Of a stretch of 64,000 bases of DNA, positions 14,708 through 18,068 are shown piece by piece. The stretch spans positions 496,001 through 560,000 of the forward strand of contig NW_027191453.1 in assembly GCF_011745625.1 (NCBI RefSeq). Reading direction: 5' to 3'. The notes beneath the pieces are model-generated. The model had not been told where the DNA came from and made no database searches. It saw only the letters and a program-made list of their open reading frames with translations. Made by a program: the position numbers and the translations under genes. Source of the DNA: Cladosporium halotolerans (lineage: Eukaryota). Positions within the stretch are counted from its first letter, which is position 1. Every line of letters begins with the position of its first letter.

Positions 14708-16453
14708 TCAATCGTCATCGCTGTCCGATCCGTCATCCGTGAGCCACTTGCTCATGTACGGACCGTCGAGCCAGTATCCCAGACGCTTGTAATATCCGCG
14801 GACACCCACTCCAGAAATGACAGCGATCTTTGAAGAGCCGTGTTCATCACGGGCAATCCTCTCAGCTTCTTGCATCAGCAGCGTGCCATAGCCTTGGTGC
14901 TGACTCTTGCCCTTGACACGCTCGTGGATGGGGACTGCAGAGCCGTACACGTGCAGCTCACGGACCAGACTGCTCTGCTGGCCGGTCAACTCCTCGCGGT
15001 AGGTGTACTTCTTGGTGCATTTCCTGAGGCGAAGCAGGCCGATGAGGATGTCCTGCTTAGGATCCTCGTAAGCCAGGAACGTCTCCCAGCCGCCGTTGGC
15101 GACGTAGTCGCGGCGGACCAGCTCGACTTGGTTCGGCCTGATCTTATGCTTGACTTCGTTGACACCGACCTCGCGCGTGCGCACATCGCGACAGCTGGTG
15201 CCGAAATCTTTCATGCGAGCGAGCGCCAACTCGCGGAGGTTGCCGTTCTCAACACCAGAGGTGACCAGGGGCATGGGAATGTCACGCTGAACACGATAGA
15301 TACGGGTCCAGGGCGGGATGAGGGCGAGGATGCGTGCCACCAAATCGATAAGCACGTTCGGAGTGTAGTTCTTGTATCGCCCAGTCCGCCACAGCTCGTA
15401 CAGACCGGTGCCACGGATGACCAGTGTAGGGTAGATTTTCAGACCGTCGGTGCGGAAGCCAGGGTTCTCAAAGTATTCCTGGAACTGGAAGAGATCGCGC
15501 TCGAGACCAACGTTGGGCAGATCAGGCATCATGTGAGAGACGACCTTGAACCCTGCGTCCTTCGACATAGCGAATGTCTCCATGACGGCCTTGACGGTGT
15601 GCCCACGGTTTGTGTCTCTCGCAACGTCCTCGTACAAGCTCTGAACACCGACTTCGAGACGAGTGCAGCCATATCTGAGCATGTCTGACAAATGCGGAGG
15701 CAGACAGTAGTCTGGTCTTGTCTCGATTGTGATACCAACACACTTTGTGTTGCTCATCTCGCCAGCCATAACCGCCTCTTCCACATTGTTCGTCTGATAG
15801 CCCGACAGCGCGTTGTGAAGCTGGGAAATGAACTCTTCTCTGTACTTGGGGCTCAAGCTCATGAATGTGCCTCCCATGATGATGTACTCCACCTTATCCA
15901 CGCTGTGCCCCATATTCCTGATCTGATCGACTCTGCCTCTTGCCTGCTCGAAAGGATCGTATCGTGCCCGGATGGCACGCATACTCGTGGGCTCATATCC
16001 AGTGTATGACTGTGTCGAGTACTCGAAGTCGCTGTCCGGACCACCAGGGCAGTATACGCAAATGTTTCCAGTGTAGGCAATATGGGGACATCTGTGCGGC
16101 TTGCACATGACAGCCACGACAGCAATACCAGAAGCACTTCGAATCGGCTTCGCAATCAGCTTGGGCAAAATATATTTCTTGTAATGCTCCGGGACGGCAG
16201 CAATAATGGCTGTGAGGGGTGGCAAGATCGAGAGGTAGTGCTTCTTCGCAACCTGACCTCGCAGGGCGTTAAGGTTGATATCCTTCTTGACGCCCGTTTG
16301 TTGTGTCTGCTCATAGTCCTCGACCAGGGCGTTGGCAATGTCGGCGCATGCGCGCATGTAGCGCTCGTTTTCGGGTGCCAATTTCTTGAGGTTGGCCGCG
16401 CCCATGCGTTTCCCTTTGCCAATTACCGGCTCGGTCATGGTGGCTGTCGCCAT
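14708..16453 (-). CDS. ELP3: Elongator subunit Elp3 (radical SAM plus acetyltransferase), intronless
   Basis: [24 protein letters not shown] radical-SAM motif, [21 protein letters not shown] and GPYMSK. Confidence 0.97.
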
Positions 16454-16855: not shown

Positions 16856-18068
16856 ATGCAGTCCCTCCGCCAACCTCTGACCCGCGCTGTGCGCTCCGCC
16901 AACCTCACCCGCTCCGCATACTCCTCTGTCGCGCCCTCGACCGGCTACGCGTCTACCAACTCCAACCTGCGCATCTCCGACCAGACCAAGGTTGTCTTCC
17001 AGGGCTTCACCGGCAAGCAGGGTACCTTCCACGCCCAGCAGGCCATTGACTACGGCACCAACGTCGTTGGCGGAACCAACCCCAAGAAGGCCGGCCAGGA
17101 GCACCTTGGCAAGCCCGTCTTTGCCAATGTCGCCGACGCTGTGAAGCAGACCGGCGCCAACGCCTCTGCCATCTTCGTCCCTCCTCCTCTCGCCGCCGCC
17201 GGTATCGAGGAGGCTATCGCTGCTGAGATCGGCCTTGTCGTCTGCATTACTGAGGGTATCCCCCAGCACGACATGGTCCGCATCACCGACATCCTGAAGA
17301 CACAGAGCAAGACCAGACTGGTTGGCCCTAACTGCCCCGGTATCATCGCTCCGGTAAGCATACCCTTCATCCATACCGTCCATACGTTCCCCTGGCCTAC
17401 GAGCGCAAGCAAAAAGATGAGAAAATATATACAAAACATGATAGGAAGAGTATGAGCTGTTACACAGTTTTGATTACTCTAGAAACACTCTGATATCGAC
17501 GTGATACCAAACACAATCGTACCTCACACCTCTCCGAGTGCAACCCACTAACGCACCCTCCCAGGGCCAATGCAAGATCGGCATCATGCCCGGCTTCATC
17601 CACAAGCGCGGCCGCATCGGCATCGTCTCGCGTTCCGGCACTCTGACCTACGAAGCCGTCAACCAGACGACGCAAGCCGGCCTGGGTCAGTCGCTCGTCG
17701 TCGGCATCGGCGGCGACCCCTTCAGCGGCACGAACTTCATCGACTGCTTGAAGGTCTTCCTCGAGGACCCGGAGACGGACGGCATCATCATGATCGGCGA
17801 GATTGGCGGCTCCGCCGAGGAGGACGCGGCCGACTTCCTGCGCGAGGCCAACAAGGAGAAGCAGAAGCCCGTCGTCTCCTTCATCGCCGGCATCTCCGCG
17901 CCGCCCGGCAGGCGCATGGGCCACGCCGGCGCCATCGTCTCCGGCGGCAAGGGCGGTGCTGACAGCAAGATTTCCGCGCTCGAGTCCGCGGGCGTCATTG
18001 TTGAGCGCAGCCCTGCGGCTCTCGGCAAGACTCTGCGCGAGGAGTTTGTCAGGAAGGACATGCTTTAA
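16856..18068 (+). CDS. LSC1: Succinyl-CoA ligase alpha subunit, mitochondrial, 2 exons (16856-17353, 17565-18068)
   Basis: Arg/Ser-rich presequence, [38 protein letters not shown] and the phospho-His motif RRMGHAGA. Confidence 0.96.
17411..17496 (+). ncRNA. Candidate intronic box C/D snoRNA guiding LSU rRNA 2'-O-methylation
   Basis: Box C-like AAGATGA 17414-17420. Guide ATGATAGGAAGAG 17438-17450 is the reverse complement of conserved LSU rRNA CUCUUCCUAUCAU. D' ATGA 17452-17455, C' TTGATTA 17470-17476, D CTGA 17490-17493, about 55 nt upstream of the CTAAC branch point. Confidence 0.7.

Follow-up and report, generated by a model that had tools for sequence, protein, structure and literature searches.

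The closest described systems are box C/D snoRNAs directed at helix 90 of the LSU rRNA. Nc CD3 of Neurospora (EU780927; Liu et al., 2009, PMC2780460) is a 90-nt, cDNA-cloned and northern-positive RNA with a D' guide listed at 14/0 for 26S-Um2840, a site that, in the available parts of that paper, is predicted rather than mapped in Neurospora. Table 1 of the same paper gives it no homolog in either yeast and names 'snoR29' as the Arabidopsis homolog, which conflicts with the targets G2392/G2410/U2411 given for SnoR29 in PMC8053127. Its location entry in the available table is blank; by the count of table rows (45 intron, 1 exon, 8 intergenic, with nine intergenic in the text), Nc CD3 should be intergenic. 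In Drosophila, Me28S-U3344a/b (CD56a/b; RF00526) are intronic in Stt3A, a protein gene unrelated to translation, and the guide RNA is expressed (PMC6770171; bioRxiv 10.64898/2026.05.21.726978). Their target, Um3415 (old 3344), precedes the A-loop uridine 3454 by 39 nt, with a MethScore of 0.974-0.979 in four controls that falls to 0.82-0.89 after fibrillarin knockdown (Sklias et al., 2024, PMC11014333); U49 of the fly is also predicted to reach it. Table 1 of that work marks the equivalent site 'Dm' only among the six species compared, i.e., as not methylated in yeast, human, Arabidopsis, Xenopus, and Dictyostelium. Neighboring helix 90 sites are guided in Arabidopsis by U49 (C2880) and SnoR64 (U2884), corresponding to yeast C2879 and U2883, and the available data list no Nm at the equivalent residue, Arabidopsis U2883 (Wu et al., 2021, PMC8053127). 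In Chaetomium, where we find the equivalent residue to be U2841, a pseudouridine two bases upstream is placed in the 'H90: cluster at PTC' (PMC12723226, supplement). A survey of fungal snoRNA families, the Neurospora ones included, may hold Dothideomycete members of the CD3 family (Canzler et al., 2018, PMC5824354).

The element examined here lies in a 64,000-nucleotide stretch of the Cladosporium halotolerans genome (hereafter the window), within the intron of a gene for the succinyl-CoA ligase alpha chain. The relevant features are the following:

16856..17353, + strand: LSC1/SUCLG1 exon 1, succinyl-CoA ligase alpha, codons 1-166 (PF02629)
17354..17564, + strand: LSC1 host intron, 211 nt, phase 0, GT..AG, branch motif CTAAC at 17548-17552 (splice joint in contigs)
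17409..17496, + strand: predicted mature box C/D snoRNA, ~85-90 nt, with ends placed by the usual trimming a few nt beyond boxes C and D
17414-17493, + strand: box C to box D span of the snoRNA (boxes and spacing)
17414..17420, + strand: box C, AAGATGA, 6/7 of the consensus, U2 changed to A (sequence)
17438..17450, + strand: D' guide, 13 nt, antisense to LSU rRNA helix 90 (pairing with own LSU)
17452..17455, + strand: box D', ATGA (sequence)
17456..17468, + strand: D'-C' hairpin with a CTGT/ACAG stem, stem at 17457-17467 (covariation)
17470..17476, + strand: box C', TTGATTA, its TGAT invariant in 22 aligned sequences and outside the search pattern
17477..17489, + strand: spacer ahead of box D, without a working guide (chance likeness to the U45/CD17 guide)
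17490..17493, + strand: box D, CTGA (sequence)
17565..18068, + strand: LSC1 exon 2 including the stop codon (PF00549)

Removal of 17354-17564 fuses two in-frame exons into a 333-aa protein with the CoA-binding and ligase domains of LSC1 (PF02629, PF00549), and the exon 1 product matches a protein named from C. halotolerans at 100% identity. The exact 211-nt skip with GT..AG ends is seen in contigs from three of the four public runs examined, representing three studies, of which one is on record as RNA and two are guessed to be so; the fourth contains unspliced LSC1 DNA with zero differences from the window, of which it may be the source. The three spliced runs have zero cover over the intron, as assembled contigs, which cannot reveal a small RNA. 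A preliminary description of this DNA had called the intron longer than typical, and a crude splice-motif survey of the window agrees, with 14 of 27 candidate introns measuring 49-71 nt and several of the longer candidates probably false. It had also singled out an AT-rich unit of about 80 nt, and the GC content is indeed 29% at 17411-17496, as against 56% for the remaining intron and 58% for the window overall. Box C begins 60 nt past the donor, and the end of box D is 71 nt from the acceptor and 58 nt from the branch A; the main donor distance of Neurospora intronic snoRNAs is 41-60 nt in the available data (PMC2780460). Upstream of LSC1, and head to head with it, is the intronless tRNA-modification gene ELP3 (14708-16453, - strand), the two start codons being 402 bp apart; a tRNA search of the 64-kb window returned none.

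Boxes C, D', C', and D occur in the order described previously, together with the CTGT/ACAG stem, though the U2 to A change in box C had gone unmentioned. The element thus combines a box C (RUGAUGA, 6/7), a box D (CUGA), a stem-joined D'/C' pair, and an antisense stretch in the 10-21 nt range at D', and model R1, the training set of which included the window, has a single match in the window at 72 bits. A 4-bp terminal stem is missing. In the predicted fold, the 3' end of the guide (17446-17451) may pair back with the bases following C' (17474-17481); among 22 homologs, the two innermost of these pairs are kept in 21 and 20, and the third in six.

The pairing was evaluated on the species' own rRNA, using rDNA assembled in the same genome. 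The guide forms 13 Watson-Crick pairs and one G-U with LSU positions 2839-2852 (duplex of -21.9 kcal/mol), in agreement with the pairing described earlier. The fourteenth pair is nonetheless doubtful, as the base at D'-1 covaries with the final C' residue (C'7) in 20 of 22 aligned homologs as U-A, A-U, or G-U, and hence belongs to the C'/D' stem; the G-U pair with rRNA probably does not form. By the D'+5 rule, A17447 (D'-5) stands opposite U2843 of the own LSU, 39 nt before the A-loop uridine. With this uridine at U2921 in yeast, the predicted target is yeast U2882, in line with the uridine proposed earlier. The further statement that S. cerevisiae is not known to carry a 2'-O-methyl at this position fits the 'Dm'-only entry and the absence of a yeast homolog in the two tables cited above. 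The window holds 15 perfect 13-mer antisense matches to rRNA, and only this guide is followed by a D'-like box; genome-wide there are three exact matches to the guide, of which the copy in the LSC1 intron is the sole snoRNA-like one, diverged paralogs being judged by the exact 13-nt pattern and one DNA search only. A second run of 14 pairs (12 Watson-Crick, two G-U) between 17468-17481 and LSU 351-364 was rejected as chance: it spans C', ends 8 nt before box D, and its D-side part reaches -7.6 kcal/mol.

Compared by eye with Nc CD3 as published, the window snoRNA has the same 13-nt guide right before an N-ATGA (D'), the same target, an AU-rich spacer after box C, a D'-C' hairpin, and a length of about 90 nt. 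It differs in its altered box C, which is canonical in Nc CD3, and in its setting in the LSC1 intron, Nc CD3 being by inference intergenic. With the Drosophila Me28S-U3344 RNAs it shares the target, the D' register, and 17 identical letters over the guide and D'. The search of Rfam suggested in the preliminary description returned nothing in the window at gathering level. Among weaker matches RF00526 ranks best, with 25.2 bits (E 0.044; gathering score 50) and only the 5' half aligning, and across 20 homologous loci the best fungal homolog reaches 35 bits. On its sequence, the window snoRNA should work like the Drosophila guide while falling below the RF00526 cut-off, and it is best filed with Nc CD3. 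The U49 and SnoR64 identities drop out, since the D' register falls on U2882, which is three bases away from the target of U49 and a single base from that of SnoR64. A further fungal candidate, Afu-198 of Aspergillus fumigatus (RF01500; Joechl et al., 2008, PMC2377427), is a 130-nt intergenic RNA with predicted targets Cm2856 and Um2859. RF01500 has no match at E<=1 in the present genome (38 of 805 first-look candidates scored) and none in the 20 homologous loci. Its Um2859 is probably U2882, by an offset of 23 derived from other rows of the Afu-198 table and yeast numbering.

A metagenome scan with a pattern of box C core, guide, and D' yielded 109 stretches (80 with full flanks, 29 with ~300 nt on each side), among which near-identical contigs recur, such that counts are not counts of species. 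The guide, D', and C core are invariant in them because they were built into the pattern; the C' and D boxes, which were not, are present in 92 of the 109, the remaining 17 including cut contigs, variants missed by the pattern, and chance matches. The D'-C' hairpin shows two-sided changes at all five of its pairs, with 87% of cells paired as opposed to 36-53% for slid partners, in 22 sequences hand-picked for spread and with the structure derived from the same alignment. A model built from 22 homologs, with Nc CD3 outside the alignment, recovers 20 of 24 held-out pattern matches at 51-78 bits, whether intronic or free-standing, while three matches with little beyond the guide score 27-32 bits. 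In 22 of the 109 stretches the host is the LSC1 intron after codon 166. The 21 complete introns of these 22 loci (one is cut short) are 199-237 nt long, with box D 69-85 nt from the 3' splice site. The host proteins are 79-98% identical, and their nearest named proteins, among the matches listed, come from Cladosporium, Hortaea, Friedmanniomyces, Recurvomyces, Elasticomyces, Saxophila, and Vermiconidia, suggesting Capnodiales-like fungi as the bearers of the LSC1-hosted form.

Apart from the LSC1 group and a second intron group discussed below, there are 77 stretches, of which 55 are complete by pattern and 42 distinct. A close terminal stem (at least 4 bp) is present in 36 of the 42 distinct copies, and splice signals on both sides in one of the 36 with enough flank; hence, most of these other copies look free-standing. 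The neighbors of such copies (e.g., L036, L039, L047, L048, L088) vary by group and include genes for a SacI domain protein, diphthamide synthase/DUF7729, a PITH domain protein, and an aminotransferase.

The boxes, the pairing with the species' own rRNA, and the conservation of C' and D bear out the earlier reading as a box C/D snoRNA, and we propose with high confidence that it is a single-guide RNA of the Nc CD3 type. It would be transcribed within the LSC1 pre-mRNA, freed by intron splicing and debranching, trimmed to ~85-90 nt, and assembled with Snu13, Nop56/58, and Nop1 (fibrillarin). Its guide would then pair over 13 nt with helix 90 of the pre-LSU rRNA, and Nop1 would methylate the ribose that faces D'-5, i.e., yeast U2882. 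The local basis for this proposal is the boxes, the splicing of the intron, the complementarity to own rRNA, and the fact that homologs keep C', D, the hairpin, and the position of the intron. From elsewhere come the expression of the Neurospora counterpart and the measured methylation of this base in the fly, whereas the steps of processing, of protein binding, and of methylation in the present species are extrapolated from the known box C/D pathway.

It is conceivable, if very unlikely, that the element is a true descendant of the family that is weak or decaying in this lineage, leaving U2882 partly methylated or unmethylated. Snu13 normally binds U2 of box C, and the U2 to A change, together with the missing terminal stem, would cut accumulation. 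The branch of the window intron in our intron tree is long (0.61, as against 0.02-0.13 for the end branches of other Cladosporium-like LSC1 copies), related Cladosporium-like contigs have a second copy that the syntenic spacer of this genome lacks, and the guide is missing from both yeasts, as far as the Neurospora survey reports. However, the same box C position is altered in seven of 14 distinct LSC1-intron copies (canonical in the other seven) and in all ten copies of the second intron group, which keep all other elements; this makes 17 of 24 distinct intronic copies overall and argues against recent decay. Likewise, ten of the 14 distinct LSC1-intron copies have no close terminal stem, so a missing stem is normal for the intronic form. 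In the window, moreover, the guide, D', C', D, and hairpin are all intact.

Equally improbable to our mind is an active role for the host, in which the snoRNP would control LSC1 splicing, or the intron would tie rRNA methylation to the expression of the TCA cycle. The constancy of host and spacing across proteins of 79-98% identity could be read in this way, as could the head-to-head arrangement of LSC1 with the tRNA-modification gene ELP3. Against this, LSC1 is not the host of 87 of the 109 family members, any intronic snoRNA should show conserved spacing, and ELP3 adjoins LSC1 in just two (L056, L087) of the ten homologous loci with ~1.5 kb upstream. The related remark that a TCA-cycle gene is an atypical host was half right: this host is conserved across a whole fungal group, but a non-translation host was already known for the same site, namely Stt3A of the fly.

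A double guide, with the D side also acting on the SSU U45/CD17 site through methylation or as an extra pairing arm, is less likely still. The partial U45-like match noted earlier holds as letters: eight of ten agree in register with the U45/CD17 guide, the top value among 58 distinct D sides (next best six), and eight contiguous pairs form with the SSU at -11.5 kcal/mol. By eye, 11 letters are identical to Nc CD17/U45, the 18S-Am154 guide, in the same register before box D. As a working guide it was rejected: mismatches fall at D-4 and D-5, the latter being the target base, no duplex of at least seven Watson-Crick pairs starts at box D, and the closest relatives match at only four to five of ten letters. 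Part of the match comes from C' itself and from bases engaged in the back-pairing with the guide, and we read it as chance helped by these. An intact U45-type D guide (duplex of -17.6 kcal/mol) is found elsewhere in the genome, at L119 (G000:C112 near 364507), in an intronic CD17-type double-guide snoRNA with a non-canonical box C.

In some relatives the D side does carry a perfect guide sequence. The LSC1-intron orthologs L021, L033, L053, L063, and L105 (with near-copies L059, L067, and L096) have a perfect guide of 9-10 nt before box D; in these five distinct sequences it is aimed at the residue corresponding to own LSU A2289, the Neurospora CD14/U79 site, and it is missing in the Cladosporium copies, indicating that the D side is labile within the LSC1-intron group. 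The window D side was also considered as a decayed CD14/U79 guide and set aside, its agreement being five of ten letters, a value that free-standing copies also reach in four of 41 cases. Five pattern matches for a CD14-type gene elsewhere in the genome include none with a clear C..D layout.

Least tenable of all, at a near-zero probability, is a chance AT-rich intron with a fortuitous rRNA match: the empty Rfam result at gathering level and the 10-mer rRNA antisense matches in 2850 of 5000 dinucleotide-shuffled introns would allow it, but the actual configuration of a 13-nt perfect antisense with a D'-like box arises in three of the 5000 (66 without the box), and it is ruled out by the conservation data, with C', D, and a covarying hairpin in the homologs and 22 loci with the same intron, alongside the cloned Neurospora counterpart.

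The guide and its target are already known, as Nc CD3 and Drosophila Me28S-U3344 share guide and register, and only the move into the LSC1 intron looks new. Searches of a largely open-access body of literature found no snoRNA in a succinyl-CoA ligase intron, no 'Um2882/U2882' with 25S rRNA, and no snoRNA intron transposition in Cladosporium. The present analysis contributes a guide RNA that is unannotated and missed by Rfam, with zero gathering-level matches in the window, and a predicted ribose methylation in helix 90, near the peptidyl-transferase center, that is apparently common to filamentous fungi and flies. Single rRNA methylations usually have small effects, and the biological consequence is therefore expected to be modest. 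The better use of the finding is evolutionary: closely related moulds have the family in free-standing, LSC1-intronic, double-guided, and intron-duplicated forms, so that host switching becomes testable. As judged from the homologs, the family would be free-standing in most fungi sampled, and its entry into the LSC1 intron would date to an ancestor that Cladosporium shared with the Teratosphaeriaceae/Extremaceae-like fungi.

The intron-duplicated form is a second snoRNA-bearing intron copy seen in ten Cladosporium-like contigs (L015, L030, L041, L052, L061, L076, L080, L097, L099, L110; e.g., L052:1327-1949). There, an intron-like unit of 194-210 nt lies between GPI2 and an FMN dehydrogenase gene, these neighbors having been checked by Pfam on L052 only. 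Donor, branch site, and acceptor, plus an AG just before the donor, are present in all ten, and no LSC1 coding remnant was found around the unit in these contigs. The 3' tails of the second copies resemble those of LSC1 introns of Cladosporium relatives (z 0.9-7.1, nine of 16 comparisons above 3), as against one of 32 above 3 for other hosts, and z of 2.0 at most for the window intron. In a tree of 26 introns, with the row for L053 shortened, the ten second copies join six Cladosporium-type LSC1 introns at 96/96.

The simplest history suggested by these sequences is capture in LSC1 followed by duplication of the whole intron within Cladosporium. In a fuller version, which we offer tentatively and regard as somewhat more doubtful than not, a free-standing guide would have been captured in an LSC1 intron at the Capnodiales-like root, and some descendants would have gained the CD14/U79 guide. 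In Cladosporium a copy of the whole intron would have landed after an AG in the spacer that separates GPI2 from the FMN dehydrogenase gene, where it would still be spliced from a new non-coding host, before being lost in the lineage of the window. If true, this would be a natural spliceosomal intron transposition kept by its cargo; the alternative is a segmental duplication of which the exons have decayed. In the present genome, the syntenic GPI2 spacer (L129:1205-1501, G000:C276) is ~190 bp shorter and without the snoRNA, and the family model has no match in it. A test for a relic in this spacer gave z values of 3.2 and 3.5 against two of seven introns, with at most 2.0 against the other five, amounting to a weak resemblance to the 3' half of the second intron copy.
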